Shown one piece after another: positions 21,030 to 58,652 of a stretch of DNA of 64,000 nt. How positions within the stretch are numbered: the stretch's first letter is position 1; each line of letters starts with the position of its first letter. Position numbers and translations under genes: made by a program. The stretch is from Eledone cirrhosa (lineage: Eukaryota). The notes beneath the pieces are model-generated. The model made no database searches. It was not told where the DNA came from and saw only the letters and a list, made by a program, of their open reading frames with translations. The DNA lies in contig OZ024745.1 of assembly GCA_964016885.1 (NCBI GenBank), forward strand, positions 132,866,001-132,930,000, written 5' to 3'.

Positions 21030-23690
21030 ATCAGGTTGCTTTTCGCCATCTGAACACAGACCTCTATGCTGATAAGACCTCTTCCACCTTTAGATCTCTT
21101 TAAGTAGAGTCTATCAAAATCACTCCTCTTGTGAAACATGTTGTAGATAGTCAATAGCTTCCTAGTTTTCCTATACATTTCTTTTTGTTCAGCAACATTC
21201 CATCTCAGAATTCCCGCACTGTACCTAATAATAGACATAGCTCGAAAATTTACTGCACTTAAGGCATTCCTACTGTTCAGATTTGACTTTAATACGCTCC
21301 TTTCTCTCCGAATGTATTCATATCTTATCAATTCCTTCACTTTTTTGTTCTTGATGTCATCAGCCTCCAGAACACCCAAATACATGTATCCTTCTTCAGT
21401 GTCAAGTTCCTTTATCATCTCACCTGTTGGTACCTGGATTCCGTTGCTTCTGCTCAATTTACCCCTCTTCATCACAATGACTCCACACTTACTAATACCA
21501 AATTGCATACATATATCATTGCTGAAAATACGGACAGTGTCAACAAGTACATATAACTCCTTCTCACTCTTCCCGAAGAGCTTAAGATCTTCCATGAAGA
21601 GGAGGTGATTGATGGTAAGCTCTCCCTTTCCAACTTGTATCCTGCTCTCACCTTTCGCAGTATAATGGTCACGGGCATCACGCCAAGGACAAACAACAGA
21701 GGGGACAGACTATCTCCCTGGAAGATACCTCTCTTGATCTTCACGCCTCCCAAGGATTCTCCAGCTGATGTTAACTCTGTTTTCCAGGGCTTCATACTTT
21801 TGCCCAACAACTGTCTGATGTTATCTGCCACCTTGAAGATCTCTAGGCTTTTGGTGATCCAAGAATGAGGCACCATGTCAAATGCCTTTTGTAGTCTATC
21901 CATCCCATGGCAAGACCAGTGTGTCTCCTTTGCCATCTTATCAATAAGTAACTGGTCCTTTGTACCACGTGACTTCTTTCGGCATCCTTTCTGTTCGTCC
22001 GGTAACAATTTGTTTGTGTGGAGGTGATGGTAGATTTCCTCAGACATAATGCTTGTCAACAGTTTCCACATTACGGACAGACATGTGTTAGGTCTATAGT
22101 TGGTAACATCATTACCCTTGATTCGGTCTTTCATTACCAGAACTGTGGTACATTTTGTCAACCACTCTGGTACCTCACCCGACATCAAGCAGTCATTGAA
22201 CATGGTTGTCAATTTCGCGTGGAGGGATGTTATATTTTTAATCCAATACCCCTCCACAGTTTCTGGGCCTAGTGATTTCCAGTTGGTTATGTTTTTGGCC
22301 TGCCCCTTAAGAGTTTCAACTGTGATACTCAAATCAGTTTGTTGGTATGCCTGTTCACTAATATCCTTTTGTACTGTCTCAATCCTCACTGCCTGGTCAT
22401 TATGTTTAACATCCTGCTCCCATATTCCTCTCCAGAATGTCTTAGTTTGTTCCGCCTCAGGGATCAAGTCGTTGCCTCTTTCTTTCTCTTCTAGCTGTCC
22501 AAACAGCATCTTCTGGTTGTTGTCGAACATGCGGTTCTGTCTATACTGACTGATTCTGTTCTCGTATCGCCTAATTTTTTCACTCTTTGCTACATTACGT
22601 TGCTTCAGTTACTCTATGATAATATTTAGCTTTTTCCTCCTAGTTTTGTACTTTATTTCCAGTCGATTTTTAGTGTCTATGTTTTTTAGTGTCCCATTCA
22701 GTAGGGACTCAAGGTTTCCAATGGCATTTCCTTGATTTGACCATTCAGTCGTTTCTTCCACCAAGGTTCTGATCTTTCTTGTTTGTTGTTTCATCTCGCT
22801 TTTATGCCAAGTAATTTCCTCACCGCATTTGCTGTTGCTTTGAGGATATTGTTGCACTGGTGAAGGCGCCTCGCCTCAAGGTATGGGATGACTTTGTTTA
22901 CCTCAGCTGTTGTTTGTTTTAACTTTTTCCTGTCTACAAATCTTAGTTTCATAGGTTTCCCACTATCATTGTTCAATTCATCTACCACTAAGTTTAGGAT
23001 AACTAAATCTTGTCCTAGCCCGTCAGCATTCATCTCCTCAATGGCCGTATCTTTGTTCCAGGTATTATTTATTTCAGCATTCAGATCATTGTCTGCTTTG
23101 GATGGTTCCTCCGTTCTCTCAACCTCTTCACATTCATTTCCCACTGGCTCGTTTGCCTGGCATACTCCACACTGCATTTCCAACCTAATCTCTCTGCTCA
23201 GTTCCTCCAGTTCCAGCTCGCTTATCCACCCATTAGTTCTTATTACCCGAGCCTCCCCGGCCAATTTGTGTTCATCTAATTTAAATAGACCAATCTCGTT
23301 CCAGATGTTATGCATCCGTTTCCTATAGCCTTTCTCCTTGGGGTTACTCTTCAGGTAACATTGCATAACAGTTCTATTCAATTCTTTCGTCCAGTTGGTT
23401 CTGGTCCCTTTCCTTCTTCTTCTTCCCCCGACACCAGCAGTATTTGGTTGACAGCCAGGTCCCTGCTGCTGAGCCAGGGAGCACCTGTTGGGTGAAAGTC
23501 TGTCACGTGACATTCTAGTCTCCATTTCACCGTTATTGGAACTGTTTAGGTTCGACATTTAAACACACTTATCGAGGATTGGCGAATGTATGGTTACATA
23601 ACCACCGGTGAATTACTTGTCTCCGGTGGTTTCGTCACTCCACGTGACTTTTGTGTGGCATTATCACGCTGTAGACGAACCCAAACAAAC
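21030..23690 (-). mobile_element. R4/Dong-like non-LTR retrotransposon, subfamily A2: 5' UTR, N-terminus and RT present, 3' end lost
   Basis: ATG at 23558; Myb-like RTNWTKELNRTVMQCYLKSNP..GYRKRMHNIW; RT motifs [22 protein letters not shown]; frameshifted; ends before the zinc knuckle. Confidence 0.92.
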
Positions 23691-23879
23691 AAACAAACAA
23701 ACAGGCAGAAAAACCCCCCAAAATGAATAAGCATAAGTTTCATTGTAATGTAGTGTTTGAATGTCTGACTTAGTTTTTCCCTTCCCTTCTCTGTCCGTCC
23801 GTTTGTTTTTCTCTTCATTTTTATTTCCTTTACGTTTTTCGTTGTTGCTGTGCTGCTTTGACTTTGATTTTTTTTTTTA

Positions 23880-24690
23880 CAGTCTATTTATATATTTTGA
23901 TGTTTTCCTCTTTTAGTTGGAATTCTACAATGTAGCAGGGGATAGCGGGAGAGAATAGCGGCGGTAGTGATATTGAGGCAGCGGCGGCGTAGGCGGTGCT
24001 GTGCTAGCAGCAACTAGCAGGAGGTAGTGGGAGAGAATAGCGGCGGTAGCGATAGTGAGGCAGCGGTGGTGGTGATGTGGTCGTATTACTGTAGTGATGG
24101 TGTTGAAGTTGGAGTAGAAATTTGAGTCGACTTGACCAGAGTTTTCATCGTGGTAGTGGTGGTGGTATTGGTGGTGACATTATCTTTAGTGAAATTACCG
24201 TTAGTCGTGTATATGTGTTGACATTTACCCATAATATTGGAATTAAACATTTTGTTAAAACTAAAACTTGAGGCAATAGTAATAGTAATTATTATTATTA
24301 TTATGCTGAGATTGGTGGTGGTGGTGAAATTGCCGTTATCGGGCTGTTGTGTTTAGTGTACACAGCGGGGTGATAAGGTACGTGGTGTATCTGGTTTCTG
24401 ATATTGGTGAAATTGCTGTTATTTGGCTGTTCTATATAGTGTAGACAGAGGGGTTTTCTTCCATTTATAACCATTTTCTTTTTGAATATAAAATGTATAA
24501 TACAAAATTGAATATTTGAGCGATATAACAATATATTGCGGATCCGAATTCTTTGGGACTCAAGCTGGATGTTTTATGCAACATTTGTACTAAGAATTGT
24601 TATTTCATAATTGATTTAAATATGTTAAAAAATTAAAACTTACGGGATTGATTTCTCGACCTTCTATCCACCATGTGTGTCTTCTTCCCT
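23880..24690. repeat. ~0.8 kb unit X, copy 1 (paralog at 41436-42116)
   Basis: Colinear similarity from TCTATTTATATATTTTG through a GGT-rich block to GTCTTCTTCCCTTA. Confidence 0.85.
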
Positions 24691-24742
24691 TATAATAATA
24701 ATGTGATAATAATAATGTCTCACATTATTATTGTTATTGTTA

Positions 24743-25240
24743 TTCCTTGAATCTCAGTCATTGATGTTGGTTAACTGGAAAGTCCGTTGGATTGAATATC
24801 AAGCCACTACCTGCAGCCTCAGATATTCAGGACGTATCGGAGGGTTCTTGCCGTTCCAAGCAAGCATGCCTTTTGAAGCGTTCCAAAAAGCGTGAAGGGG
24901 CCGATTTTCTTTAACCATCCCTGGAAACCTTTGGAGATAGTCCCCAGTGCGCCTATGACAATCGGGATCACTTTGACTTCATGGCAGTTCCAAATCCTTT
25001 TCACCTCCCACTTTAGGTCCTGGTATCGGTTAATTTTCTCCCTCTCCTTCTCTTGCACTCTCGTGTCGAACGGGCAGGCCACATCCACAATCAGGCACGA
25101 TCTTTTTTCTTTGTCCACAACCACCAGGTCAGGTCTATTGTGTTCCAGTTTTTTGTCCGTCTGTATCCTAAAATCCCACAGCACCTTTACCTGACTGTTC
25201 TCCATCACCGCCTCTGGCCTATGCTCATACCATTTCTCAG
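24743..25240 (-). mobile_element. R4/Dong-like family A1 copy 1, 5'-truncated (RLE domain plus 3' UTR)
   Basis: RPDLVVVDKEKRSCLIVDVACPFD...EKINRYQDL (PD-(D/E)xK RLE); (TAA)n tail. Confidence 0.96.
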
Positions 25241-25263
25241 TATTATTATTATTGTTATTGTTA

Positions 25264-26566
25264 TTCCTTGAATCTCAGTCATTGATGTTGGTTAACTGGA
25301 AAGTCCGTTGGATTGAATATCAAGCCACTTCCTGCAGCCTCAGATATTCAGGACGTATCGGAGGGTTCTTGCCGTTCCAAGCAAGCATGCCTTTTGAAGC
25401 GTTCCAAAAAGCGTGAAGGGGCCGATTTTCTTTAACCATCCCTGGAAACCTTTGGAGATAGTCCCCAGTGCGCCTATGACAATCGGGATCACTTTGACTT
25501 CATGGCAGTTCCAAATCCTTTTCACCTCCCACTTTAGGTCCTGGTATCGGTTAATTTTCTCCCTCTCCTTCTCTTGCACTCTCGTGTCGAACGGGCAGGC
25601 CACATCCACAATCAGGCACGATCTTTTTTCTTTGTCCACAACCACCAGGTCAGGTCTATTGTGTTCCAGTTTTTTGTCCGTCTGTATCCTAAAATCCCAC
25701 AGCACCTTCACCTGACTGTTCTCCATCACCGCCTCTGGCCTATGCTCATACCATTTCTCAGAATGTGGTAGATTGTTTACTTTGCACAGGTGCCAGTGGA
25801 TCACCCTGCCCATCACATCGTGTCTCCAGCCCTTATAGTGGGTCTGGGCTAGGTGTTTACACTCGGACACAATGTGAGCCACAGTCTCCTCTCTCTCTCC
25901 ACAGATCCTGCACAGTGGGCTAGCCTCCTCCTTGTAGATATGGTGCTTCAACCACTTCGTTTTGAGGGCCTGCTCCTGCGCAGCCATTAGCATTCTTTCT
26001 GTAGCCTTTTTGAGGTCTCCTCTTCTCAACCAGTTCCATGTCTGTGGATCTCTAAATTCAGCTTTCTCAAAGAAGGTACTATGAAGGGATTTTCCCTTAA
26101 GGCTGCTCTTCCTCCTTGATGTTATTTCCTCCTTGGATATCCCCTGGCCTACTGTCCCCTCCTTCAGTACAGCTCTGAGCATTGGCTCCTTACTATAGGT
26201 CACGTATTTGTATAGGTTGTTTTTCTCCATCTGAACACAGTCCTCTATGCTGATAAGACCTCTTCCACCCTCAGTTCTCCTTAGGTAGAGTCTATCGACA
26301 TCACTCCTCTTGTGGAACATGTTGTAGATAGTCAATAGCTTCCTAGTCTTCCTATCCATTTCTTTTTGTTCAGCAACATTCCATCTCAGAATTCCCGCAC
26401 TGTACCTAATAATAGACACAGCTCGGGAATTTACTGCGCTTATGGCATTTCTGCTGTTCAGATGTGACTTCAATACGCTCCTTACTCTCCGAATGTATTC
26501 AGTTCTTAACAATTCCTTCATTTTTTTGTTCTTTATGCCATCAGCCTCCAGAACGCCCAAATACTT

Positions 26567-26570
<4 letters not shown>
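25264..26570 (-). mobile_element. R4/Dong-like family A1 copy 2, 5'-truncated, intact 406-aa reading frame
   Basis: RT thumb GGRGL, CCHC knuckle [21 protein letters not shown] domain; (TAA)n on both sides. Confidence 0.97.
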
Positions 26571-26607
<37 letters not shown>

Positions 26608-26620
26608 GTTGTTATTGTTA

Positions 26621-26831
26621 TTCCTTGAATCTCAGTCATTGATGTTGGTTAACTGGAAAGTCCGTTGGATTGAATATCAAGCCACTACCTGCAGCCTCAG
26701 ATATTCAGGACGTATCGGAGGGTTCTTGCTGTTCCAAGCAAGCATGCCTTTTGAAGCGTTCCAAAAAGCGTGAAGGGGCCGATTTTCTTTAACCATCCCC
26801 GGAAACCTTTGGTGATAGTCCCCAGTGCGCC

Positions 26832-26834
<3 letters not shown>
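26621..26834 (-). mobile_element. R4/Dong-like family A1 copy 3, ~210 bp 3' stub
   Basis: IGALGTITKGFRGWLKK...YVLNI* plus 3' UTR between (TAA)n tracts. Confidence 0.95.
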
Positions 26835-26865
<31 letters not shown>

Positions 26866-26871
26866 GTTATT

Positions 26872-29370
26872 ACTCCTTGAGTCTCAGTCATTGATGTTAG
26901 TTAACTGAAAAGTTTGTTGGAATGAATATCAAGCCATTACCTGCAGCCTCAGATATTCAGGACGTATCGGAGGGTTCTTGCTGTTGCCAGCAAGCATGCC
27001 TTTTGAAGCGTTCCAAAAAGTGTGAAGGGGCCGATTTTCTTTAACCATCCCTGGAAACTTTTGGAGATAGTCCCCAGTGCGCCTATGACAATCGGGATCA
27101 CTTTGACTTCATGGCAGTTCCAAATCCTTTTTACCTCCCACTTTAAGTCCTGGTATCGGTTAATTGTCTCCCTCTCCTTCTCTTGCACTCTCGTGTCGAA
27201 TGGGCAGGCCACATCCACAATCAGGCACGATCTTTTTCCTTTGTCCACAACCACCAGGTCAGGTCTATTGTGTTCCAGTTTCTTGTCCGTCTGTATCCTA
27301 AAATCCCACAGTACCTTCACCTGATCGTTCTCTATCACCGCCTCTGGCTTATGCTCATACCATTTCTCAGAATGTGGTAAACTGTTTACTTTGCACAGGT
27401 GCCAGTGGCTCACCCTGCCCATCACATCATATCTCCAGCCCTTATAGTGGGTCTGGGCTAGGTGTTTACACTCGGATACAATGTGAGCCACAGTCTCCTC
27501 TCTCTCTCCACAGATCCTGCACAGTGGGCTAGCCTCCTCCTTGTAAATATGGTGTTTCAACAACTTCGTTTTGAGAGCCTGCTCCTGCGCAGACATTAAC
27601 ATTCCTTCTGTAGCCTTTTTAAGGTCTCCTCTTCTCAACCAGTTCCATGTCTGTGGATCTCTAAATTCAGTGTTCTCAAAGAAGGTACTTGAAGGGATTT
27701 TTCCTGACGGCTGCTCTTTCTCCTTGATGTTATTTCCTCCTTGGACATCCCCTGGCCTATTGTCCCCTCCTTCAGTACAGTTCTGAGCATTGGCTCCTTA
27801 CTATCAGTCACGTATTTGTGTAGGTTGTTTTTCTCCATCTGAACACAGTCCTCTATGCTGATAAGACCTCTTCCACCCTCAGATATCCTTAAGTAGAGTC
27901 TATCGACATCACTCCTCTTGTGGAAAATGTTGTAGATAGTCAATAGCTTCCTAGTCTTCCTATCCATTTCTTTTTGTTCAGCAACATTCCATCTCAGAAT
28001 TCCCGCACTGTACCTAATAATAGACACAGCTCGGGAATTTACTGCGCTTATGGCATTTCTGCTGTTCAGATGTGACTTCAATACGCTCCTTACTCTCCGA
28101 ATGTATTCAGTTCTTAACAATTCCCTCATTTTTTTGTTCTTTATGCCATCAGCCTCCAGAACGCCCAAATACTTGTATCCTTCCTCAGCGTCAATTTCCT
28201 TTATCATCTCACCTGTTGGTATCTGGATTCCGTTACTTCTGCTCAGACTACCCCTCCTCATCACAATGACTCCACACTTACTAATACCAAATTGCATACA
28301 TATATCACTGCTGAAAATACGGACAGTGTCAACAAGCACATCCAACTCCTTCTCACTCTTCCCGAAGAGCTTAAGATCGTCCATGAAGAGGAGGTGATTG
28401 ATGGTAAGCCCTCCCTTTCCCAACCTGTATCCTGCTCTCACTTTTCGCAGTACACTGGTCAGGGGCATCAGGGCAAGGACAATCAACAGAGGGGACAGGC
28501 TATCTCCCTGGAAGATACCTCTCTTGATCTTCACGCTTCCCAAGGATTCTCCAGTTGATGTCAACTCTGTTTCCCAGGACCTCATACTTTTTCCCAACAA
28601 CTGTCTGATGTTATCTGCCACCTTGAAGATCTCCAGGCTTTTGGTGATCCAAGAATGAGGCACCATATCAAATGCCTTTCTGTAGTCTATCCATCCCATG
28701 GCAAGATCAGTGTGTCTCCTCCTGCAATTCGCCATTACCATCTTATCAATAAGTAACTAGTCCTTTGTACCACGTGACTTCTTTCGGCATCCTTTCTGTT
28801 CGTCCGGTAACAAGTTGCTTGTGTGGAGGTGATGGTAGATTTCCTCAGACACAATGCTTGTCAACAGTTCCCACATTACGGACAGACATGTGATAGGTCT
28901 ATAGTTGGTAACATCATTACCCTTGGTTCGGTCTTTCATTATCAGAACTGTGGTACCTTTTGTCAACCACTCTGGTACCTCACCTGACATCAAGCAGTCA
29001 TTGAACATGGTTGTCAGTTTCGGGTGGAGGGATGTTATATTTTTAATCCAATACCCCTGCACACCATCTGGGCCTGGTGATTTCCAGTTGGTTAGTTTTT
29101 TGGCCTGCCCCTTAAGAGTTTCAACTGTGATACTCAAATCAGTTTGTTGGTGTGCCTGTTCACTAATCTCCTTCTGTACTGTCTCAATCCACACTGCCTG
29201 GTCATTATGTCTAACATCCTGCTCCCATATTCTTCTCCAAATGTTTTAGTTTGTTCCGCCTCAGGGTTTAAGTCGTTGCCTCTTTCTTTCCCCTCAAGCT
29301 GTCTAAAAAAGCATCTTCTGGTTGTTGTCGAACATGCGGTTCTGTTTATACTGACTGACTCTGTTCTCTG
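26872..29370 (-). mobile_element. R4/Dong-like family A1 copy 4, 2.5 kb, 5'-truncated, frameshifted
   Basis: Full RT ([42 protein letters not shown]), zinc knuckle and RLE. Confidence 0.97.
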
Positions 29371-29625: not shown

Positions 29626-29884
29626 TCATTGCGTTGACATAGTGTTCCTGCTATGTCTAATGGACACAATTGCAATACGAAATAAAGAAACCTACACGCA
29701 GTAGCTGCAGGTGTGTCGCTGATAAAAACTTATTCAAGATTGATGACATTACATACATTAAACAATTGCATAATATATGTTCACCCTAACGAATCGAAAG
29801 TTGCACATACAGTATGGTCAAGCAGTGAAATTGTGAAGGGAAGCAACGGTAGACAGACTTGGAGATACACATTGACCAGCGAAG

Positions 29885-29944
<60 letters not shown>

Positions 29945-30355
29945 CAGAAGGGATATTCAATTTGTTGGTAATTCAACAAATATAAATGTTTATAACTGAT
30001 TCAGAGCACTCAACAGTTTTCTGGACTATAATATACAATGATATTAAATAAATCGAAACTATATTTATAAAAGCAAATTTATTCTGTTATATATATTTCA
30101 AGGGTACTAAAATGTTGTTACGCTATCATCAGATAAAATACCAAGTTTGTTTCATAAAGTTTGACATAACCAAGGATATCCACGGATAACTTGAACCGTT
30201 AAGGTATATTCTCCTTCATTATGTCAAAATTTATAAAACACACTTCGTATTTTATCTGATGATAGCGTACCAAAAGTTTGGTACCCCTGAAATATATATA
30301 ATAGAATAAATATGGTTTTATAAAAATAGTTTCCATTTATTTAATATCATTGTAC
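29945..30355. mobile_element. Fold-back element (~140-bp imperfect arms, ~30033-30355) with a minimal hammerhead motif on each arm; Penelope-like terminal repeat
   Basis: Plus: TATTTTAT-CTGATGA(30256)-stem-GAAA(30289)-TATATATA-ATAGAATA; mirror copy on minus at ~30080-30140; abuts (TA)n. Confidence 0.7.
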
Positions 30356-30984
30356 ATGCATATTAAAAATATAGACATGTTAAAATACCAAATAAAGTTG
30401 TTTCACTTTAAATCGAAAAACAATAACTGATTAACACATTTAATCGATTTTCACTGCTATTTGACCCTCCTGCAGACGGCCTAATTGCTATCTAAACAAC
30501 CACAAAGAAATAGGTAACACCTTATCATCTTTATTAAATGAACGTACTGATTTGAATATTATTTGCACTTATGTAGGAACTCAATTAAAACATATTTTGT
30601 TGTGTGCTATGAAGCCGAAGAATATAAAATTGTATATATAGAGAATAGTGGTAAGATATGCTGCATGAATTGTATATAAATGTATACATCTTTCCTATAT
30701 AGACATGTAAGTATGCTAAATATGCGCATTTTACTGTACATTGAAATATAATTGCTATACACGCTTTCAGGTGAAATCCCAACTAGGATTGAAAATATAT
30801 TAAATATTGTTATCCCTTTTTTCGATTTACCAAGGAATACTTATATTTGACATATTAACATGTTTACTTTTTAAAATACGTGTAATTTTATATACACATT
30901 TACACCGACAGAGTTACCACTGTTCTCTATATATACAGTTGTAACTCTATCATATTCGTCAGCTGTTAACACATAACTGTAGGC

Positions 30985-31190
30985 TGGGTTGTGTTCTTGA
31001 GCAAAACACTTCATTTCACGTCGCTTCATTATAGTAAACTGAAAATGAGTACCAGCAACAGCTGGGAGATTAACCCTGCAATGGAGCGGCGTCTTATCCA
31101 GGGAGTGATTCTTGTACTTTCAGCCGGTTCCCGCCATGAAACCCGGATAAGCACTACCCTAAAGAAACTTCTGTCTTGAAAGAGACTTTG
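30985..31190 (+). mobile_element. Second SINE family, central and 3' region
   Basis: TGTGTTCTTGAGCAAAACACTT...AACCCTGCAATGGAGCGGCGTCTTATCCAGGG resembles conserved central domains of invertebrate tRNA-SINEs. Confidence 0.6.
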
Positions 31191-32224
31191 CACTTTTGAT
31201 TGCAGCAACTACGGCAATAATATTTATACGTCCCTGAACATTTACAATATTCTTTATAAGTACATTTACATTCCATTTTAACAGTTTTCATCTTGGATTT
31301 TCATTAAAACTGTTTTTATTGGTGAATATAGTTTGCCACACTTTAAAGTAAGAGTAGCAACGCTCTTATACGTTACATTACTGATATCTGTCAAAAGAAA
31401 CTTTACAATATTCACTTATCCCCATTCCTAAATAAATGCCTCAGTAAAAAAGAACTGTTATCCTCAACAAACTGAAATTTTATGTAACAGTTTTAGAAAG
31501 CATTCACACTTTCAGTTGTGATCAAACCTGAATGTAACTCATCTCATTCCCTCCTCAATGGAAAATTACAAGGTAAGCCACCACATAACTTTCAACACTC
31601 GGTATATGTTTCAGTTCTATGATACTAAGGTTATTTACTCTTCTTTTAGAAATATTGTTCGGTGGCTGGAAGCACATCAGCTATTCTTCATACACTCTGG
31701 AAGAAGCAAGCCTACTTCAATCGCTGAACAAACATAAATGTAATATAAGCTTAAATACTTTTAGATGTTCGTTTTTAAATATAAGGTTATTAGTTTTGAA
31801 AATTATGATCTTATTAGCGATTGAATTTCATTTCGTTTATTAAAACATGATCACAGCGACTATAATGATTTTTTCTTTTAAGGTCATGTTTAATACTTAA
31901 GAAATGTATCTACATATACTTCGAAGTTATTGATGTAACATTTCAAGTAAGCAAAACGAGAAAACTTGGTGGTGGCCGTGACGCGATCAATGAAATTCTG
32001 CTGCTAGAGATTGAAATAATATGTAACATTGTGAAGCAATTAGATGAGCTTTCCAGGTGAATGTACATACGGTATTTTTAATTTACCATATGTTGTAATC
32101 TGCAATCACAAGTAGATATCGTTTATGTGTGTGATAGCTCACACCTATGCAGGTTTAGCTGGCCTCTTCCAAGGTATATCTTGTTGGAAGTATCTTGGGT
32201 GATTTATTGATAGGCACACCAGTC

Positions 32225-32376
32225 CTATCATCTCATTTCTACAGTTGAGTAAACTGGAGCAACGTGAAATAAAGTGTCTTGCTCAAGGAAACAACACATC
32301 ACCCGGTCCAAGAATTGAACTCACAACCTTTCGATTGCAAGCCCAATTCTCTAACCACTAAGCCATGCGCTTTCAC
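32225..32376 (-). mobile_element. tRNA-headed SINE (not S1)
   Basis: Minus strand: A box TGGCTTAGTGG, B box GAGTTCAATTC, then TTCCTTGAGCAAGACACTTTATTTCACG as in 30985-31190. Confidence 0.8.
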
Positions 32377-33269
32377 CTAGATACGTTTTGTATTGCTTCG
32401 TATGATATTTTTCAATTACGCCTGAGATGATTTTATAGGAATCTGATCTCAAACATATATATTTGAAACATATCCGTATATTTTAAAATGGCTCCAATCA
32501 CTATGTCAATACGTTATTGCTGCATTATATATACAAGATGCTAGAAGAGTGTATAACATGTGTATCTATATTTACATAGAAAACTATAACAGTTAAATTA
32601 ATAGGTTGAATTGCGTAATTTCTGCTCTGAAAGAACTTTAAATCACGGTAATTGTACATCTCTAAATTATTGTTCACCTTACGATAAATATTTCCCAGAC
32701 GTATACGTACAAGAGACGAGTATTTTGTACATTTTCATGTTAAATCAGCCAATCCAACTATGTTATTTTATCATTATAATTGTACACACTATACACTAAT
32801 CTTGCAACGATCATGTATTCCAGTAAGGGTATTGTATAACTCTAAACTCCATTCATAAACGATTGTATTTGATCAAAATATCAACAATTATTTAGACAGG
32901 CAACCCAAATAAGTAGGCTCTTGATAAATGTAGACATCACTTCAATTTAGCTTTGCAAAATTATTCCTAATTTATTCTAGATGAACAGCCAATGAACTCA
33001 GTCATCCAAAACCGTTTGGAGTTTTAGTATATTGAAAGCAAACAGTAAGAATAAATTGATGTTTATGAACGATTTAACGCTTCAATTTCTTCAGCGTTCT
33101 TCATTGCTGATATAAAACAAAAAACGGATTCTTCCGCTAAATGTAAAGTAGCGAGAAACCAATTTCTTCTATTTTCTTTTTATATGTTTGCCCCTCAAAA
33201 CATTTGAACATTTTTAATATCTTTAATTATTTTCTGCTATTATATCTAGACCGCTTTTTAAATTAGTCG

Positions 33270-33353
<84 letters not shown>

Positions 33354-33371
33354 ATATATATATATATATAT

Positions 33372-33692
33372 ATATTAATTCAAAATATTAATAAATATAG
33401 ACATTCATGTGATCAAATATATTTTCTTATATATATTTCAGAGGTACTGTGCTGTTTCCTCAGTTGAGGTATGTCAGACATCAATTCATTTTATCTGATG
33501 AGGACGTACTGAGGAAACAGCACAGTATCTCAAAAATATATATAATAAAATATATTTGATCACATGAATGTCTATATTTATTGATATTTTGAATTAATAT
33601 TAATAACTCCAGAAAACTTCTTTGTTGAGTGATTCTAATCTATTGTAAAACTATATTCATTTATTAATCAATGAACCTTGTTTAACATTTGG

Positions 33693-33695
<3 letters not shown>
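33372..33695. mobile_element. Fold-back element (~93-bp arms, 33372-33464 / 33508-33600), same family as 29945-30355, with hammerhead motif
   Basis: CATTTTAT-CTGATGA(33495)-GGACGTACTG..CAGTATCTCA-AAAA-TATATATA-ATAAAAT; left arm retains GAAA; TCCAGAAAA..TGTTGAGTG flank shared with 29990-30030; lies between (CT)n(TA)n and (TA)n. Confidence 0.7.
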
Positions 33696-33748
<53 letters not shown>

Positions 33749-34116
33749 CATGGCGGATACCTAAATGTATTCGTGAGTAAATAATAGCTGAGAGAAAACA
33801 GTGGAGATATTGTCTTTGTTGAGACTGTATCTTCGTCACTTCAGCTCCCTAGAACTACGGACAGTACATAGTATTCTCAGATGTATATATCTACTGATTA
33901 GCCTCATTTACATATCGAACGATTTTACGTCCGGCTTTATCGAACATTAAAAGGTAGAATGTGGTTTTACACTTAACATGGTGGATACCTAAGAGTATTC
34001 GTGGGGGAATGACAATACTATTATAATATTAATAATATTACATTATTATAATATTAATATTGTTGTTATTCAATCATGATTACACAGAGAGAGACACTTG
34101 TATATATACACACACA

Positions 34117-34168
<52 letters not shown>

Positions 34169-34189
34169 CATACATGTATTAATTACTGA

Positions 34190-34529
34190 CGCCGATAAAA
34201 TAAAGTTCCAGTAGCACACTGGGGTCAGTTTATTAAACTGACCCCAGTCTTTCGGCCCTCCCCAAATTTGTCCGCCTTGTCTCTGAATCAGAAACCATTA
34301 TTAAGGGCGGTGGATTGGCAGTGCGGTAGATCGTCGGACACAATGCTTTGCAGCATTGAGTTACTCCGCTTTATGATCTGTGTTCAAATCCCTCCGGAGT
34401 TAGCTTTGTCTTTCCTCCTTCCTCCTTATGGGGTCGATAAAATAAAGCAGCAGTACCGTACTGGAGTCGATTTAATCGATTTCCACTCTCCACAAATATC
34501 TGGCATTGTGCCTATACTAGAAATCATTA
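34190..34529 (+). mobile_element. Two tandem S1-related SINEs (3' half 34190-34302; full copy 34304-34529)
   Basis: First ends AGAAACCATTATTAA and is directly followed by head GGGCGGTGGATTGGCAG; second ends AGAAATCATTAC. Confidence 0.85.
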
Positions 34530-34530
34530 C

Positions 34531-34984
34531 TTGAAAGGATTGAAGACGGACACTTTCCTCTTCGGCGAATTTCTGATTAACTTTTTCAAGTTTCACTTGA
34601 AGAGGAAGATCAGGGTGGAGAGGCAAGTGCTGTCTTGTAGTAAGTTTGTTGAACGGGAGGTGAAAGTGGTGAGTCTGCTCCGAGTGAACGGGTCTGCTCT
34701 GAGTATGCGCCTGTAGACTGAGGGGGGGGGGTCTGAGAGAGCACTTGCCCTGGTGGTTGGGTAGCCGTTGTCTTTTGTGTGGTTCTCGCCATGAGTGACT
34801 CTCGGAAGTTTCCCCACCATTGGGGAATTTTTGTTGTTTGAATTTCTTAATATATTTATGTTGTTTTTTGTTACAACCCTTTTTACCCGAACCAAACCCA
34901 CTTTGTATCGTCCTGCACCGTTCTGTGCCGTCTCTAATGTCTTTCTTCATGTAAGCCCTTGTGGCCAATAAAGAAACCATTATT
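34531..34984 (+). mobile_element. Tx1-clade LINE 3' fragment (older subfamily)
   Basis: LKGLKTDTFLFGEFLINFFKFHLKRKIRVE aligns to the C-terminus of 42237-43799; 3' end AATAAAGAAACCATTATT. Confidence 0.9.
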
Positions 34985-34992
34985 CTTATTAT

Positions 34993-35207
34993 ATCGGTAG
35001 ATGGTCAGACGTCATGATAAGCATCATAGAGTTACGGCCCTTTAAGAACCCAGTTCAAATCCCACCGGGGTTAAATTTGCCTTTCATCCTTACGGGGTCG
35101 ATAAAATAAAGTATCAGTCATGCTCTGGGGTCTATTTAATCGAATTTCCCCTCCTCCAAAAATTGCTGGCCTTGTGCCTATAAAAGATACAATTATTATT
35201 ATTATTA
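34993..35207 (+). mobile_element. S1-related SINE, slightly 5'-truncated, with (ATT)n tail
   Basis: B box AGTTCAAATCC, S1 core, 3' end GGCCTTGTGCCTATAAAAGATACAATTATTATT. Confidence 0.88.
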
Positions 35208-35701
35208 CAGTTGCATTTAACTTGCTTTATGTTCATACGAGTTATCACCAAGTCACAACCAGTGACCTCAAGAGACAACAAGTTCCGCCATGTTCAAGAA
35301 AGAACATACATGCACACACATACATCTTTAGGTGTTTATACTTGTGATGTAATTATATTGACAGAATCTAACTTAGTATATGGGCAGTTCCCTTTAGTAC
35401 TATATTTTGTATTTCTCCTATACGCGGGTTTCCTGGTATTTGTGATAAGTAATCATTAGCCCCCTTACGTATCATTCCTAGAGCACCTACAACCACTGGT
35501 ATTGTTTTAGTTGTCAACTTCCACATTTTTCCAATTTCTATCTCCATGTCTTTATACTTGCTCAATTTTTCAGATGTTTTTATAGATACATTCTTGTCTA
35601 TTGGAACGGACATATCAATTAGCAGGCATACCATCTTTTTAAAGTCCTTCAGTATTATATCAGGTCTATTTGCATCTAATTTTTGGTCTGTTTGGATGCT
35701 A
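35208..35701 (-). mobile_element. R4/Dong-like family B copy 1, 5'-truncated
   Basis: RPDIILKD..CLLIDMSVPID..EKLSKYKD..IPVVVGALG RLE plus 3' UTR, between (TAA)n tracts. Confidence 0.93.
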
Positions 35702-35714
35702 TTATTATTATTAT

Positions 35715-37156
35715 TTGCATTTATCTTGCTTTATGTTCATACGAGTTATCACCAACTCACAACCAGTGACCTCAAGAGACAACAAGGTCCGCCATGTTCA
35801 AGAAAGAACATACATACACACACATGCATCTTTAGGTGTTTAGACTTGTGACGGACATATCAATTAGCAGGGTACCCTCTTTTTAAAGTCCTTCAGTATT
35901 ATATCAGGTCTATTTGCATCTATGTTTCGGTCTGTTTGGATGCTAAAGTTCCACAAGATTGAGATGTGATCTTTTTCATGTATGGGAGGTGGTTGATGCT
36001 CCCACCAATTCTTTTGATGGGTCAAGTCAAAATGCCTACACATTATCCAATGTATGTAATGTGCAGCTCTGTCATGCCTGTTTAGGTATTCGGTTGGAGC
36101 TATAGGACTGCACATTGAAATTATATCGTCAATGGTCCCTGGTTGTTTTTTACATACACGGCATAATGGGTTGCATCCATTTTTTAATGTTGGCTTGATA
36201 ATTTTTTGTTGGCAGACACTGATCTTGTACTGATATAATCAGTCCTTCAGTCTCCGATTTCAGTCCAGGGGTTGCGAACCACTGATGGGTTAAGGTTTTG
36301 TCAACATCAGGATTATTAGCTCTTTCTGGGTATTTTCCATACAGAGGTTTGTCTTGCCATTTCTTAGCCGTAGCAGTTCTTTCTTTGCAGTTACTTTTAC
36401 CTGTTTTGCTTTTTCTGTGTTTTCCATTTCAGCAGTAAATGGGACTTCTGATATGTGTAGTCCATTACTGTATCTTTGTGCATCTTTTGTAATGGAATAT
36501 GATCTTTTGGTGCTTTCGTGTTTCAAAACGAGTTTGATCATCCAATCATGTGATTCCCTTAGGTATGTAGATAATCCAATTCCTGCAATTTTTCTACGCA
36601 ATATCTAACTGCATTAACCCACGTCCTCCTTCTTTCCTAGGGAGATATATTCTATCTGTATCTGCCTTAAGGTGATGCATTCTGTGCATGGTTAAGAATT
36701 TTCGAATTTTTGTATCGAGCCTACGGATCTCTGTGCTTGAACAGTTGATGACATTGTAACTGTAGGTTACTACTGGTATGGCAAGCGTGTTTATGGCATC
36801 GATAATATACCTTGCATTCAATTCCGTTCTTAAGATTGCACTTACTCTGCGGTAACATTCCTTCCATATCGTTTCCCTCATTGTCGAGTGCTTGATTCCT
36901 CTTGTTTCCTCTTGATCAAGTTCTCTTATCACATTCCCCCGATCAAGATTAATGTCTGAACTTTTCAACAGCTTTCCTCTGGTGAACGTTGCTTTGGCGC
37001 ATTTATCTAGTCCAAACTCCATTTTAATGTCATCACTGAACAGCCCCACAGTGGATAATAGCCCTTGCAATTGTTCATCATTTTTTGCAAATAGTTTCAG
37101 GTCATACATGTAGAACAAGTGATTAATGGTTTTGTCATAGACTTTATATCCATGTT
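35715..37156 (-). mobile_element. R4/Dong-like family B copy 2, 5'-truncated, internal deletion at ~35850
   Basis: FYMYDLKLF, GGRGL, zinc knuckle region and start of RLE; same 3' UTR as the other B copies. Confidence 0.93.
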
Positions 37157-37188
37157 ATTATTATTATTTATTATTATTATTATTATTA

Positions 37189-40100
37189 CATTTGCATTTA
37201 TCTTGCTTTATGTTCATACGAGTTATCACCAAGTCACAACCAGTGACCTCAAGAGACAACAAGGTCCGCCATGTTCAAGAAAGAACATACATATTCACAC
37301 ATGCATCTTTAGTGTTTAGACTTGTGATGTACTTATATTGACAGAATCTTCCTTAGTATATGGGCAGTTCCCATTAGTACTATCTTTTGTATTTCTCCTA
37401 TACGCGGGTTTCCTGGGATTTGCGATATGTAATCATTAGACCCCTTAGGTATCATTCCCAGAGCGCCTACAACCACTGGTATTGTTTTAGTTCTCAATTT
37501 CCACATTTTTCCAATTTCTATCAACAGGTCCTTATACTTGCTCAATTTTTTCTAATGTTTTTATAGATACATTCTTGTCTATTGGAACAGACATATCAAT
37601 TAGCAGGCATACCGTCTTTTGAAAGTCTTTCAATATTATATCAGGTCTGGTTGCATCTATTTTTCGGTCTGTTTGGATGCTAAAGTTCCACAAGATTGAG
37701 ATGTGATCTTTTTCAAGTATGGGAGGTGGTTGATGCTCCCCCAATTCTTTTGATGGGGCAGGTCAAAATGCTTACACATTATCCAATGTATGTATTGTGC
37801 AGCTCTGTCATGCCTGTTTAGGTATTCGGTTGGAGCTATAGGACTGCACATTGAAATTATATGGTCAATGGTCTCTGGTTGTTTTTTGCATACACGGCAT
37901 AATGGGCTGCACCCATTTTTTATTATGTTGGCTTGGTAATTTTTTGTTGGCAGACACTGATCTTGTGCCGATATAATCAGTCCTTCAGTCTCCGATTTCA
38001 GTCCAGAGGATGCCAACCAATGATGGGTTAAAGTTTTGTCAACATCAGGATTGTTAGCTCGCTCTGGGTATTTTCCATACAGAGGCTTTTCTTGCCATTT
38101 CTTAACCAGTTTCTGTAGCAGTTCTTTCTTTGCAGTTACTTTTACCTGCTTTGCTTTTTCTGTGTTTTCCATTTCAGCAGTAAATGGGACTTCTGAAATT
38201 TGTAGTCCATTACTGTATCTTTGTGCATCTTTTGTAATGGAATATGATCTTTTGATGCTTTCGTGTTTCAAAACGAGTTTGATCATCCAATCATGTGATT
38301 CCCTTAGATATGTAGATAATCCAATTGTTGCAGTTTTCAACGCAATGTCTAACTGGATTAACCCACGTCCTCCTTCTTTCCTAGGGAGATATATTCTATC
38401 TATATCTGCCCTAGGGTGATGCATTCTGTGCATGGTTAAGAATTTTCGAATTTTTGTATCGAGCCTACGGATCTCTGTGCTTGACCAGTTGATGACATTG
38501 TAACTGTAGGTTACTACTGGTATGGCAAGCGTGTTTATGGCATCGATCCTATTCCTTGCATTCAATTCCGTTCTTAAGATTGCTCTTATTCTGCGGTAAC
38601 ATTCCTTCCTTATCCTTTCCCTCATTGTCGAGTGCTTGATTCCGTCTCCTTCACAAACACCTAGATATTTGTAAGTTTTTTCTTGATCAAGTTCTCTTAT
38701 CACGTTCCCCCGATCAAGATTAATGTCTGAACTCTTCAGCAGCTTTCATCTGGTCAACGTTGCTTTGGCGCATTTATCTAGTCCAAACTCCATTTTAATG
38801 TCATCACTGAACTGCATCACAGTGGATAATAGCCCTTGCAATTGTTCATCATTTTTTGCAAATAGTTTCAGGTCATCCATGTAGAACAGGGGATTAATGG
38901 TTTTGTCATAGACTTTATATCCATGTTTTGTTTCATTGAGCATTTTACTTAATGGTATAAGTGCGATGCAGAATAAAAGCTGTGATAAAGAGTCACCCTG
39001 AAAAATTCCACAATTAATATTAACTTCTCCAGCTTCCAGTGATTTTGTTTCACTATTCAAAAGGAGTGTCGTTTTCCATGTCTTCATACTGAATGACAAA
39101 AACCTCCTGACAACGGCGGATACTTTGAAAATCTCTAAACATTTTTCAATCCAACTGTGTGGCAAACTATCAAATGCTTTTTTATAATCTATCCAAGCAA
39201 TCGATAGATTTTTGTGTCTATTATGACAATCTTCCAGTATCATTTTGTTAACCGAAGCTGATCCTTACAGCCATATGAGCCTCGTTTACACCCTTTCTGC
39301 TCAATGGGAAATAGGTCATTTGTTATCAGGTGGTCATATGTGTATTCAGTTAGGACTGATGTTAAAATTTTATACATTGTGGTCAAGCAAGTTATCGGTC
39401 TGTAATTTTTGGGATTGTTTGTCTCATCATTCCTCGGAAGCAGGAATGTAATGCCGTTAACTAGCCATGAAGGTATCTTTTCTGGCTCCTTAACTATTTC
39501 ATTGTAAAGTTGGGCTAACAGCTCATGAGACTCTGTGAAGGCATTTATCCAAAAGTTTTGTATTTTGTCTTTTCCTGGGGATTTCCATTTGCTGGTTTTT
39601 CTTAGAGCCAAGCGCAACTGTTCAACTGTTATATTTTCCCATGTTTGTTCCTCAAGGTGAGCTGTATCTTTCATTTGTCTGTCTATCCATGGGGCATGTA
39701 TGTTATGAACTTTTTCTTCGGCCCAGATCTTTTCCCAGAATTCTTGCACTTCCTCCTTGGGTGGTATTGATTTAGCAGTTATTGTTGACTTACCAATTTT
39801 TCTGTAGAAGTTTCTTTGGTTGTTTTTGAACATATTATTGTCCTTATAGAATCTAGATCGTTTTTCAAAGCGCCTTATACGAGCAGCTTTGGCCGACACT
39901 TTTTGCTTGATTATTTCTATCAGCATGTCTATGTCACATGTTGATTTTATACTGTACTTTATTTTCAATTTTCTAAGTTTAGTTTGTTTAACATGTTCAC
40001 CTACTTTATAGTTTGTTAAAATTTCTATGTCAGATCGGAGAAGGTTTATTTGGCGATTGATGTTTTCTTGCCAAGTAGATTTCTTGTGGGAATTCCTTTG

Positions 40101-41160
40101 TTTCTTCATCTTCACTCCACATAAGTGAGTGGTGACTTTAGCCGATGCATAATAGAGATGATTTAAATCAGTAATGTTTAGTTTGTTTGTGATGATAATG
40201 TTTTTGAGAATTATGTTAGTCTTGTGTATTATCTTTTGGTTTTGTTTGGAGTTCTAGATCTTAGGGAGGGTGTCTTGTTTCCCCATGTCAGATTCTTTCA
40301 TTTTCATCCATTCGATCATAATTCCAATCTTCAAGTTGGCAAGTTCATTCTCATTCATTTCTTTATCATTTACGATCTCATTATTTTCATTTGGAGTTTC
40401 ATCCTGAGCATGCACTCCCTCCACTTTTTCGATCCTTTCTCTAATTTGTTCTGTTTCCAGTGATTCCGCCCCAACCCTGGGATTCGAAGTGTTACAGTTT
40501 ACCTCGTTTTCACTGACACATGTTTCATTTTCCCTTCGCTGACTTTGTGCTAATAGCTTGATCTGATCAATTTCTATATCAGTTAGTAACTTTTTTCTTA
40601 CAATATTTCTTCGTATGTTGGCTAGTTAGTTACTGTCAATATAGCCTCTGTTTTCGGGATGTTCCTTTTTCCAGTTGATATATGTCTGTTCTGTATTCGA
40701 TGTATTTGATGGGTAGTACATGGCAGTGTAGAAAGCCTCAAGGACTTCTTTATTATCTTCCCTTGACCATTTTTCTCTCTTTTTCTTTGGATTTCTTGGT
40801 GGTGAGCATGGAGGGCCAACAGTAGGATTATTCCGGTTATGGGAGGTCTCCAGCTCCGAAGTGATGGGAAGGTTTGAACCATTAGCTGATTTTTCGACCC
40901 CAGTCTGGTTCCTCTCTGAGCGACGCGGCCCTTTTTTACCCGGGTGACGGCTGATCCGGTATGAGATTTTATCATTAGACATTTACTTTATTTTTTCGCG
41001 TTTTATCCTTATCCGCCAAGGGGTAATCATTTCGTGTTACCACTTCTAGAACGAGTGTCAACCAAGACTAGAGGGGTCGTTATCCCCTAGAGACACGACT
41101 ATTCCCTGCCGGCCGCCATCCCGGTATTTCTTGGTCACGGGGTTTTCTTTTTGTTGTTTT
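37189..41160 (-). mobile_element. R4/Dong-like family B copy 3, apparently full length (~4 kb), ORF broken by a few frameshifts/stops
   Basis: ATG 40982, Myb-like REKWSREDNKEVLEAFY, RT (NYRPIT, WIDYKKAFD, GIFQGDSLS, FYMDDLKLF), CRVCKKQPETIDHIISMC, RPDII...IDMSVP; stop at 37333; (TAA)n tail. Confidence 0.96.
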
Positions 41161-41435: not shown

Positions 41436-42115
41436 TCAATCTATTTATATATTTTGCTAGCCTCTCCCTTGTCTAGTGATACCGCCATCTTCCCCTTTCT
41501 CTCTCAAGTTAACAGGGGAATAGTGGTGGTAGCATTGAAGGAGTGGTGGCGGCGGGGAGATGTGGGAGACAGTAGCGGCGGTATCGATACTGAGACAGTG
41601 GTGGTGGTGGTGATGTCGATACCGAGGCAGTGGTGGTGGTGACGTGATCGTATTACTGTAGTGATGGTGTTGTAGCGGTGGTAGCAATGAAGGAGTGGTG
41701 GCGGCGGTGATGGGATAGTGGTGGTAATGATGGCAGTAGTGAGTGGTGGTGATGAAATTGCCGTTATCTGGCTGTTGTGTTTAGTGTACACAGAGAGGTG
41801 ATGGGGTAGGTGTTGTATCTAGTTTCTGGTATTGTTTGGCTGTTCTATATAGCGTAGACAGAGGGGGGGGGGTTCTTCTTCCATTTATAGCCATTTTCTT
41901 TTTTGAATATACAATGTACAATACAAAGTTGAATATTTGAATATTTGAGCCTTATAACAATATATTTTGGGTCCGAATTTTTTGGGGCTCAAGCCGGATG
42001 CTTTACGTAGCATTTGTACTAAGAGTTGTTATTTCACAAATGATATAAATGTTAAAAATTCAAAACTTACGGGAGCGATTTCATGACCTTCCGTCACCTC
42101 GTGCGTCTTCTTCCC

Positions 42116-42116
<1 letters not shown>
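41436..42116. repeat. Unit X, copy 2
   Basis: Colinear with 23880-24690; ends GTCTTCTTCCCT directly into (TTA)n. Confidence 0.85.
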
Positions 42117-42152
<36 letters not shown>

Positions 42153-42153
<1 letters not shown>

Positions 42154-44059
42154 TCGATAGGGTCGACCATCGTTACCTAGCGGCAGTCCTGAGGGCGGCT
42201 GGCTTTGGGCCCGTCTTCAGAGGCTGGATCGCTGCCATGCACAGCGACATCTGCTCTGTGGTGAGAGTGAACGGTCACCTGTCGGAACCGTTCAACATCA
42301 TGCGCTCGGTCCGCCAAGGATGTCCCCTCTCGTCCCTCTTGTACGTATTGACTCTCGAGCCATTACTGCACAAACTGGAGACGTTGAGGGGGGTCCCGCG
42401 CGAACTAGGATGCGGAAGATCCGTGTCAGCATATGCGGACGATGTCACCGTAGTGGTGTCGAACGCCAAACACATCGAGGCGATCGGCACTACACTAAGA
42501 GAATACGAAGCGGTGACAGGAGCAATGATCAACCAGGAAAAGTCAGTGGGCCTGCAGCTCGGCACCTGGAGAAGCAGGTCCATGCCGTCCAACAGCGTCG
42601 TCGGGCGCTGGACGGACGGACCGGTTAAATTGCTAGGGGTCTGGTTCGGTCCGGACCTCCAGACGGACAAAAACTGGGACGAGGTGACGAGCAGGGTGGC
42701 TTCTCTCACCCAGAAATGGGCGGAGAGGAAGCTATCACTGAAAGGTCGAGCGGAGGTGGCTAACGCGTACATCGCGTCTGTCATCTGCTACCGCCTAACC
42801 GTCGTACCTTGTCCTAAGCCTCGCCTGACTGCGCTGGAGCGTTTGCTCTTTCGCTTTTTGTGGAAGGGACGTGCTCCGATGGTCAGGCGGTCCATCTGTT
42901 GTCAACACCCGCTACGTGGAGGGCTGGGCATGCGGTGGCTGATGATGCGCAGGCACGCGCTCAGGCTACGACATCTCCACCTCTTCCTCGACGGTGATCA
43001 GGTGTGGTCGCCGTTTGCTAGACGCGTTTTTCCCCAGCTCGTTTCCTTGACGGAGCTGCAGTCCTGGGTCAAGCGAAGACCGAGAGGGAGCGCCTGGAGA
43101 CTGGAATGTCTTCAGGCGCTCACAGCCCTCGACCAATCGGGCAATGTGATCGGTGGAAACTCCACCTCGGCGTTCTATAGAGGATTAGTGGAGGGGAAGA
43201 GCGACGACGTACTTGGGGAAACTCTAGGCGTCGACGAAAATCAACTAGCCAATCTCTTCGGAAGAACTTTCGGGCCGGGGCCTATGGACAACTTCCAGAA
43301 ATCTCTGGCCTGGCAGTGCTACCGAGGAGCCTTGCCAGTTCGGGATAAACTCTACAGGCATGGAGGTGCCGTCATCCGGGCATGTCCGAGATGCGCGCAG
43401 GGCGACGAAACCGTCCTGCACGCACTCGTCCAGTGTCCGAAAATTGCTGACTTGTGGGTTTATGTCGAACACCTGCTGTCGCGTTTAGGACGGATCCAGC
43501 TATCATCTGAGTCTATCGTGAGGATTGCCCCGCCCTCCTCCTTTAGCCGGGAAGGGCAGGCAGTTTTTATCTGTCTGGTGGCCATGGCGAAAGAGATAGT
43601 ATGGTGGACACGTTTGAAAGGGCTGAAGACGAGCACTTACCTCTTCGGTGATGCTCTGATTGACTTTTTCAAATTTCATTTGAAAAGGAAAATCAGAGTA
43701 GAGAAGGAAGTGCTCTCTTTCCAGCATTTTGTTGAAAGATGGGTGAGAGAAGCAAGAATGGCCCGAGTGAATGGGCCGACTCTGAGTATATATCTGTAAA
43801 CTAAAGGTGGAAAACTGGGAGAGGGCACTTGCCTTGGTGGTCAGGGTCATTGTGGCTTTTTACTGGGCTTTCTCCACAAATGTCCCTCCGAAGTCTCCCC
43901 CCTATTGGGGAATTTTTCATTGTTATTTTCATTGTTATTTTTGTTACATCCTCTGTTTTTGTTTTTTTACACGCAGAAATGCCCATTTGTACCGTCCTGC
44001 ATTGTCCTGCACTGTCCTTAATGTCTACTTTATGTAAACCCTTGTGGTTAATAAAGAAA

Positions 44060-46076: not shown

Positions 46077-46087
46077 TATTATTATTG

Positions 46088-48676: not shown

Positions 48677-48691
48677 GTCCTATTATTATTA

Positions 48692-53713: not shown

Positions 53714-53796
53714 AGGGCCCGACAGCCGACCTCTTGCAGCTTTGACAGCAACTTCCAGCTTGTCGAAACGGCAAGAGCCCAGCCATCGGGCTCTCA
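53714..53796. repeat. Decayed hairpin related to the 58385 family
   Basis: GTCGAAACGGCAAGAGCCCAGCCATCGGG with an imperfect inverted left arm. Confidence 0.55.
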
Positions 53797-58384: not shown

Positions 58385-58571
58385 ATAGGAACGAGTAGGA
58401 CACCGACGGCTGAGCTCAAGCCGTTTCGACGGCTAATTCAGAATTAGCCGTCGAAACGGCTTGAGCTCAGCCGTCGGGGTCCTACTCGTTCCTATTACCC
58501 ACTCTACTACCCTAAGTATTGAGTACTTTGGTGCGTTATGGTCCACCTGGTTCCTTACCACATTTCCTTCG

Positions 58572-58572: not shown

Positions 58573-58652
<80 letters not shown>

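Follow-up and report, generated by a model that had tools for sequence, protein, structure and literature searches.

What kind of element leaves a pair of inverted repeats that encode nothing and yet carry a recurrent ribozyme motif? The question is raised by positions 29945–33695 of a 64,000-nucleotide stretch of Eledone cirrhosa contig OZ024745.1 (132,866,001 to 132,930,000; the whole stretch is called the window below). An earlier sequence-only reading had proposed that this interval holds two related fold-back elements without open reading frames (ORFs), each with minimal type I hammerhead motifs. The interval indeed consists of two separate fold-backs, E1 (29943–30357) and E2 (33367–33693), rather than one element. 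We consider it probable that both are decayed insertions of a high-copy, ORF-less unit of ~180 nt plus an 88-nt tail, which would represent the pseudo-long terminal repeat (pLTR) of a Penelope-like element (PLE); its hammerhead motif would cut the source RNA only as a dimer and is predicted to be silent at this locus.

Two fold-backs and their hammerhead motifs

The arms of E1 differ at 17 of 146 positions and those of E2 at seven of 98 (coordinates in Table 1). Each fold-back pairs a short arm with an arm that continues into the 88-nt tail and from there into (TA)n, the tail being one-sided, and on both arms of each the hammerhead sense points outward, as in a head-to-head inverted pair. (TA)n is found at three of the four ends, and an older low-copy piece adjoins the short end of E1. 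The short arms end ~57–61 nt past the predicted cut, while in the tailed arms the post-cut stretch through the tail measures 145 nt (E1) or 149 nt (E2). These post-cut stretches are homologous between E1 and E2, with a global alignment score of 111 against a mean of 59 and a maximum of 91 in 500 shuffles; the two are ~63–68% alike and therefore belong to different subfamilies. The inversion point lies upstream of the hammerhead in E1 and inside helix II in E2. Measured on E1 (30177–30357), the unit is 181 nt long, with the cut 57 nt and 145–149 nt from the ends. Every frame across the four arms is interrupted, and no reading frame starts in the repeat; the description as two related, ORF-less fold-backs is confirmed. 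Reading the interval as a single 3.7-kb element with repeats at its termini was rejected: its outer arms are ~65% alike, each inner pair is 88–93% alike, and its middle shows no coding trace.

A type I hammerhead motif is present in three of the four arms; the fourth, the short arm of E2, begins inside helix II and therefore holds only the 3′ half. The best copy, on the plus strand of E1, is built as the sequence-only reading had it: an 8-bp helix I with one G·U pair, the core CTGATGA, helix II (30263–30288), GAAA (30289–30292), a helix III formed by the self-complementary ATATATAT (30292–30299), and an AUA triplet with the cut predicted after 30300. The mirror copy expected on the opposite arm of E1 was also found, with its core at 30132–30126 of the minus strand, its cut predicted after 30088 and one helix I mismatch. 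In E2, the copy first placed at 33487–33551 (here 33488–33551) has a 7-bp helix I, a helix II that differs yet still pairs, and an A at 33533 in the place of G12, again as claimed. The opposite arm of E2 keeps GAAA and lacks the 5′ half. The core CUGANGA, GAAA and the UH triplet thus stand in type I order on both arms of E1, and E2 yields the full core set only when its two arms are combined. The 8-nt self-complementary stretch of helix III occurs in all four arms.

Such a motif is rarely expected by chance. The strict type I descriptor, a search suggested together with the original prediction, matches the window once, at 30248–30308 on the plus strand, and 200 block-wise dinucleotide shuffles of the window give an expectation per window of 0.01 (helix I of at least 8 bp) or 0.00 (minimal form, helix I of at least 7 bp). 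A relaxed scan, run with no shuffle control, returned three matches, all in the arms: the E1 plus-strand motif, its mirror, and E2 at 33495–33544 (+). A covariance model built from the three motifs adds only the other arm of E2 (32 bits, E 0.0002), and the other 18 of its 22 matches score at most 20 bits. Outside the window, a hammerhead pattern scan gave four matches in metagenome contigs, none of them homologous to the E1/E2 family, and none in viral contigs or in prokaryote genomes. A hammerhead-like match at 947–1003 of an AT-rich, phage-like or bacterial contig (L003) lies at the start of a 155-aa frame that is adjoined by a 395-aa transposase-like frame; this pattern match is probably due to chance.

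Copy number, decay and folding of the family

Of seven public runs listed, four, all from one study, contain the stretch or part of it, and the best of them may derive from the same source as the window. Reads from these four were aligned to 29945–30960 at 80% likeness and thus bear on the E1 region. In run X1, the summed depth over the E1 bins ranges from 35,000 to 2,200,000, which is not a copy number, against 11.5 in the adjoining single-copy stretch; the E1 family therefore comprises at least thousands of related copies. Restriction-site associated DNA (RAD) reads from two further individuals give the same depth profile. Of the 17 sites at which the arms of E1 differ, 15, among them 30054 and 30355, show the letter of the opposite arm in other copies; one of the remaining two has a third letter and the other no listed row. 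The arms of E1 were therefore alike at insertion and decayed afterwards, and their differences are mostly private mutations. With a substitution rate of 0.0036 per million years (PMC13282606), and assuming an octopus host, the arm mismatches correspond to rough ages of ~18 My (E1) and ~10 My (E2).

The letters carried by the rest of the family mend the decayed motif of E1, both in helix II (30287 C>T, at 99.6% of depth, as well as 30276, 30108, 30114 and 30118) and in helix I (30086 and 30304). Core positions on both arms are untouched in the 40 variant rows listed of 128, and a common variant in loop III (30296 A>G) is still self-complementary by way of two G·U pairs. Between E1 and E2, three of the eight helix II pairs are changed on both sides, slid controls giving 0–1. 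A third subfamily, recovered from RAD runs X5 and X6, has two more helix II pairs changed on both sides; it is known from a loose-end consensus (5,740 and 7,933 reads, agreement 0.94–0.96) together with 30284 C>T, and possibly represents few loci. All three subfamilies have three basal helix II pairs, then a C–C mismatch, then the remainder of the stem.

On its own, a single copy of the motif is not predicted to adopt the hammerhead fold, closure of the 2-bp helix III costing 2–3 kcal/mol. This is the state expected of PLE motifs, which are described as requiring two same-strand copies that share the palindrome (PMC4209133; PMC6765202). A read-through transcript in either direction is predicted to form a long hairpin of −137 to −180 kcal/mol, burying the E1 motif entirely and the E2 motif from helix II onward. 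The two motifs of one fold-back lie on opposite strands and therefore could form no mutual dimer within one transcript. Given this arrangement and the burial in the hairpin, the E1 and E2 copies are predicted to be dead ends, unable to cut.

Depth falls from 27,000 at 30217 to ~2,700 at 30173, and joints are scattered over many positions (of 41 joints, 15 are listed, and of 33 that have letters between, 12); the point of fold-back thus varies among copies. One other contig repeats the center of E1 (row 30174–30177). Four of 12 listed rows are joined at 30176–30177, which may point to a definite 5′ boundary and a unit of 181 nt. A small number of listed junctions begin no more than 7 nt past the predicted cut, namely 30084 (on the left arm, equivalent to 30304), 30305, 30306, which is a loose end in three contigs, and 30307; rows of this kind are too few to decide anything. 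TA-rich flanks follow at both long and short ends, and beyond the tail the listed loose ends run into mixed TA-rich sequence (agreement 0.53–0.57) rather than the 5′ part of a next unit. RAD molecule ends at 29959, 29970 and 30228 coincide with AATT sites and were rejected as biological ends.

A probable Penelope-like origin and its alternatives

Several traits of PLE ends are present together in E1 and E2: a hammerhead within a ~200-bp repeat near the 3′ end, an inverted and 5′-truncated head-to-head copy, a one-sided tail, and (TA)n. The PLE hammerheads described by Cervera and de la Pena in 2014 (PMC4209133) have the same CUGANGA and GAAA boxes, a long helix II, a palindromic helix III, a U-rich 5′ flank and mostly ORF-less, scattered copies, and opposite-strand pairs of minimal hammerheads 100–700 bp apart are described in the same source, as in E1 and E2. 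The E1/E2 family differs from the motifs given there in lacking the G10.1–C11.1 pair, in the C–C mismatch after three helix II pairs, in a helix I of 7–8 bp made of A/U, and in a helix III formed by a TA repeat. Endonuclease-bearing PLEs that target (TA)n, of the Hydra clade and others, for example Penelope-13_HM (Craig et al. 2021, PMC8557442), share the (TA)n target, place the hammerhead ~100–200 nt from the 3′ end, and acquire hammerheads on both strands through an inverted 5′-truncated copy; the same paper describes a (TA)n insertion bias for the Neptune, Naiad and Hydra clades. In contrast to these PLEs, E1 and E2 have no ORF, and Hydra-clade helix III is given as a 3–4 bp stem. The Hydra-1_oBim motif listed in that paper is unlike E1 and E2 in sequence.

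A close structural parallel is found in the Pen2a-type insertions of Adineta vaga (PMC3846280), with pLTRs of 181–218 bp, a head-to-head inverted arrangement, a tail on one end and TATATATA within the pLTR. As described there, these pLTRs suffice for integration in trans and flank an ORF or captured DNA, with target duplications of 8–10 bp, whereas E1 and E2 consist only of the inverted pair and any target duplication is hidden in (TA)n. A PLE tail has been described as the stretch between two start sites of the reverse transcriptase (RT) (PMC11167929). Animal retrozymes of the non-LTR kind (PMC7229834; 10.64898/2026.07.22.740005) are likewise short, non-coding, low in GC and PLE-derived, with a type I hammerhead, but they are defined in these sources by head-to-tail units and circular RNAs, where the copies of E1 and E2 are inverted.

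A number of observations weigh against a PLE origin or against a working hammerhead. The linked GIY-YIG/RT ORF for which the sequence-only reading had suggested a search did not appear: no PLE RT or GIY-YIG frame was detected among the 149 of 357 stop-to-stop frames of the window (at least 55 aa) that were scanned with Pfam, most frames of known LINE (long interspersed nuclear element) blocks and of low complexity being excluded, and none of the 22 frames located at 29686–35456 has a Pfam match; we infer the PLE enzymes and the parent element. The tail is 88 nt long against the 30–40 bp published. The cephalopod consensus sequences of Naiad (Obim, Ovul, Omin) and Hydra-1_oBim were rejected as parents, as the motif has no match in them and their 3′ ends are unlike by eye, although a motif split across lines could mask a match. 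Covariation within the window comes from three rows, two of them from one insertion, and lies within shuffles (228 of 500). Helix I is A/U-only and never changed on both sides, its pair probabilities in the monomer are at most 0.02, and the dimer duplex of helix III is weak (−3.2 kcal/mol). No Rfam hammerhead family was returned among 40 or three matches at E up to 10; what was returned, weak microRNA hairpins and snoRNA boxes under the cut-offs, we rejected. The variant evidence covers 40 of 128 rows. Lastly, the G10.1–C11.1 pair of the PLE consensus (PMC4209133) is never present at the base of helix II, which is U·U in E1, A–U in 43–62% of X1 depth, and G·U across the arms of E2. Since a U·U base has precedents, this absence is the mark of a variant and does not exclude a hammerhead fold: U on both sides at the helix II base is given for 14 of the 26 Hydra-clade PLE motifs in the list of PMC8557442, and an axolotl motif is listed with a U·U base (PMC7229834).

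Part of this evidence could also be read as a mobile or PLE-related repeat in which a conserved promoter or TATA region merely resembles a hammerhead in AT-rich DNA. The missing G10.1–C11.1 pair and Rfam match would be accounted for, as would a monomer without the hammerhead fold, and TATATATA of the pLTR has been interpreted as a bidirectional TATA box (PMC3846280). A promoter would hardly call for both core boxes, their spacing, the UH triplet, the closure of helix I and two-sided changes restricted to helix II, all of which a hammerhead needs, and we regard this explanation as very unlikely. The same is true of a miniature inverted-repeat transposable element (MITE) or foldback DNA transposon, inserting at TA and built from hammerhead-bearing sequence, for which the palindrome would be mobile as a unit. 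The long inverted arms, TA flanks and high copy number are what such an element would show, and one other contig does share the E1 center; the centers of E1 and E2 differ, however, the junction varies among copies, as the depth drop and the scattered joints indicate, and, with a tail present on one side alone, the two termini do not form inverted repeats. Helitron-type ends were rejected, the CTRR terminus of such elements being absent.

It is also improbable that E1 and E2 are scattered remnants of a non-LTR retrozyme, in which a head-to-tail unit is released by its hammerheads, circularized, and reinserted through rolling-circle reverse transcription. The ~270-nt unit and the low GC content would suit monomers of ~300 bp (PMC7229834), and retrozymes are described as deriving from pLTRs and leaving solo monomers (preprint 10.64898/2026.07.22.740005). 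Both copies in the window are nevertheless inverted rather than tandem, no tandem joint occurs among the rows listed, the loose ends at the tail lead into mixed TA-rich flanks instead of the unit's own 5′ part, and no same-strand neighbor of the same subfamily lies within the 64 kb. Of the label given in the sequence-only reading, "Penelope/retrozyme-like" and associated with (TA)n, the Penelope and (TA)n parts are thus supported by copy number, helix II covariation, the one-sided tail and the head-to-head arrangement, while the retrozyme part in its strict sense, with head-to-tail units that each carry a hammerhead, is not supported. Within the PLE reading, two origins are nearly balanced, ORF-less master copies moved in trans being slightly favored over simple 5′-truncated ends of an ORF-bearing element.

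If E1 and E2 are PLE insertions, known PLE biology suggests that an RT with a GIY-YIG nuclease would nick the TA tract. The cDNA could then be primed from one of two start sites, giving a long end with the tail or a short end without it, and the inverted 5′-truncated copy would be added by fold-back or by a second priming event. Where a source transcript holds two same-strand copies, the AUAUAUAU of one hammerhead, being self-complementary, would pair with that of the other to form helix III. In read-through of a genomic fold-back, the antisense arm would be transcribed first, so that the motif would become trapped in a hairpin of 98–146 bp. A more speculative proposal, which we consider rather unlikely, is a very high-copy, ORF-less "Penelope SINE" (SINE, short interspersed nuclear element) family with its own hammerhead variant, in which the RNA to be copied would owe its 5′ end to hammerhead cleavage. 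Features of this variant are the long helix II, the fixed C–C mismatch, and a helix III that is the same TA repeat as the insertion target; the role given to cleavage is based on the junctions near the predicted cut and on a second family at 19467–20097 (see below). Should this hold throughout the genome, the mapped junctions would amount to fossil traces of PLE hammerheads cutting a transposition intermediate in vivo. For the one PLE studied in vitro in PMC11167929, hammerhead cleavage was not found necessary.

PLE ends with hammerheads, inverted pairs and TA targets are of a known kind, and the E1/E2 family itself is apparently unreported; it was not found in the literature on hammerheads, Penelope and cephalopods, though Repbase, Dfam or the Zenodo library of PMC13282606 may contain it. 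That literature yielded only the Naiad/Hydra paper (PMC8557442) and a giant squid genome, for which 235 Rfam hammerhead-1 loci are counted (PMC6962438). The present finding extends the known association with PLE ends to a very abundant family in an octopus-like genome, where such pieces would probably be annotated as MITEs or as repeats of unknown type. Its huge size and its division into covarying subfamilies make the family useful, both for defining a hammerhead variant overlooked by Rfam and, through its junctions, for testing the role of hammerhead cleavage in PLE transposition. Transcribed copies of the E1/E2 type would yield double-stranded RNA of 100–150 bp, which might feed into RNA editing or small-RNA pathways.

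Feature coordinates and neighboring repeats

Table 1. Parts of the fold-backs E1 and E2, with positions in the window.
Feature	Position	Strand	Remark
(TA)n next to the E1 tail, likely insertion target	29888..29942		
One-sided E1 tail of 88 nt, homologous to that of E2, two predicted hairpins	29943..30030	-	depth far above single copy
E1 long arm, sense leftward	30031..30176	-	
E1 mirror type I hammerhead motif, full core, decayed helix II	30080..30140	-	core 30132-30126, predicted cut after 30088
E1 unpaired center, 35 nt, natural upstream sequence of the right arm	30177..30211	+	
E1 short arm, sense rightward, ending 57 nt past the predicted cut	30212..30357	+	
E1 type I hammerhead motif, best copy	30248..30308	+	core 30256-30262, predicted cut after 30300
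(TA)n tract, lying behind (CT)n, at the short end of E2	33352..33375		
E2 short arm, GAAA intact, G12 at 33439	33367..33464	-	
E2 unpaired center, with helix I 5′ strand and core CTGATGA (33495-33501)	33465..33507	+	
E2 type I hammerhead motif, second subfamily	33488..33551	+	core 33495-33501, G12 and position 11.1 both A on this arm
E2 long arm, sense rightward	33508..33605	+	
One-sided E2 tail of 88 nt	33606..33693	+	
(TA)n tract, tailed end of E2	33694..33747		

The window is AT-rich animal DNA with many microsatellites and retrotransposon remnants. This repeat mix agrees with what is reported as active in Octopus vulgaris, where 31 Penelope-like families are among those listed (PMC13282606). 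Protein matches did not point to a host taxon, the best being 66% identical. RT frames are found at 1577, 21–29 kb, 35–48 kb and 42087–43799, and a Tc1-like transposase piece at 57.4–58.2 kb. Many minus-strand LINE remnants, stacked and representing two or more families, lie among (TAA)n, (TTG)n and (TGG)n at 21014–29245, 35368–40987 and 44694–48516, several of their 3′ parts being tandemly repeated; we take the long ones to be Dong/R4-like. The frame at 42087–43799 encodes 570 aa with RT and zf-RVT domains, is presumably Tx1/L1-like, and has shorter 3′ copies, including one at 48660–49118. An RTE-like RT piece (1577–1981) and a broken Tc1-like transposase (57403–58239) were also identified.

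The 3 kb between E1 and E2 hold SINE-like pieces and an older palindrome. The latter (30353–30943) is of low depth, with arms 30625–30723 and 30843–30943 (~70% alike) and a third related piece at 30353–30463; it contains a TATATA motif and one minus-strand CTGACGA, with no full hammerhead. tRNA-like SINE copies, presumably of an octopus-like type, occur at 30985–31160, 32232–32370, 34193–34530 and 34957–35200, the first two being mutually inverted over 67 nt at 79%. At 31560–31745 (+), a 77-nt intron with GTAAG and TTTTAG signals would separate two small putative exons; no homologue of their frame was found.

Other fold-backs are present in the window. The region 19467–20097 contains a 77% fold-back (19467–19711) and a further copy at 20005–20097, and at 19968–20015 (+) there is a decayed type I hammerhead-like motif without A15.1, the similarity to the fold-back arms beginning at about the predicted cut. 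It looks like a second PLE-type repeat family, and it does not align to E1 or E2. A 111-bp palindrome at 58385–58495, 97% perfect and adjoining (TA)n, belongs to a GC-richer family with nested hairpins that is also found at 53762–53793, ~58650–58720 and 60799–60898; it has GAAAC but no CTGANGA. Two inverted pairs of ~200 bp, spaced 1.1–1.3 kb apart, are located at 50786–50979/52232–52427 (91%) and 54627–54821/55939–56142 (83%).

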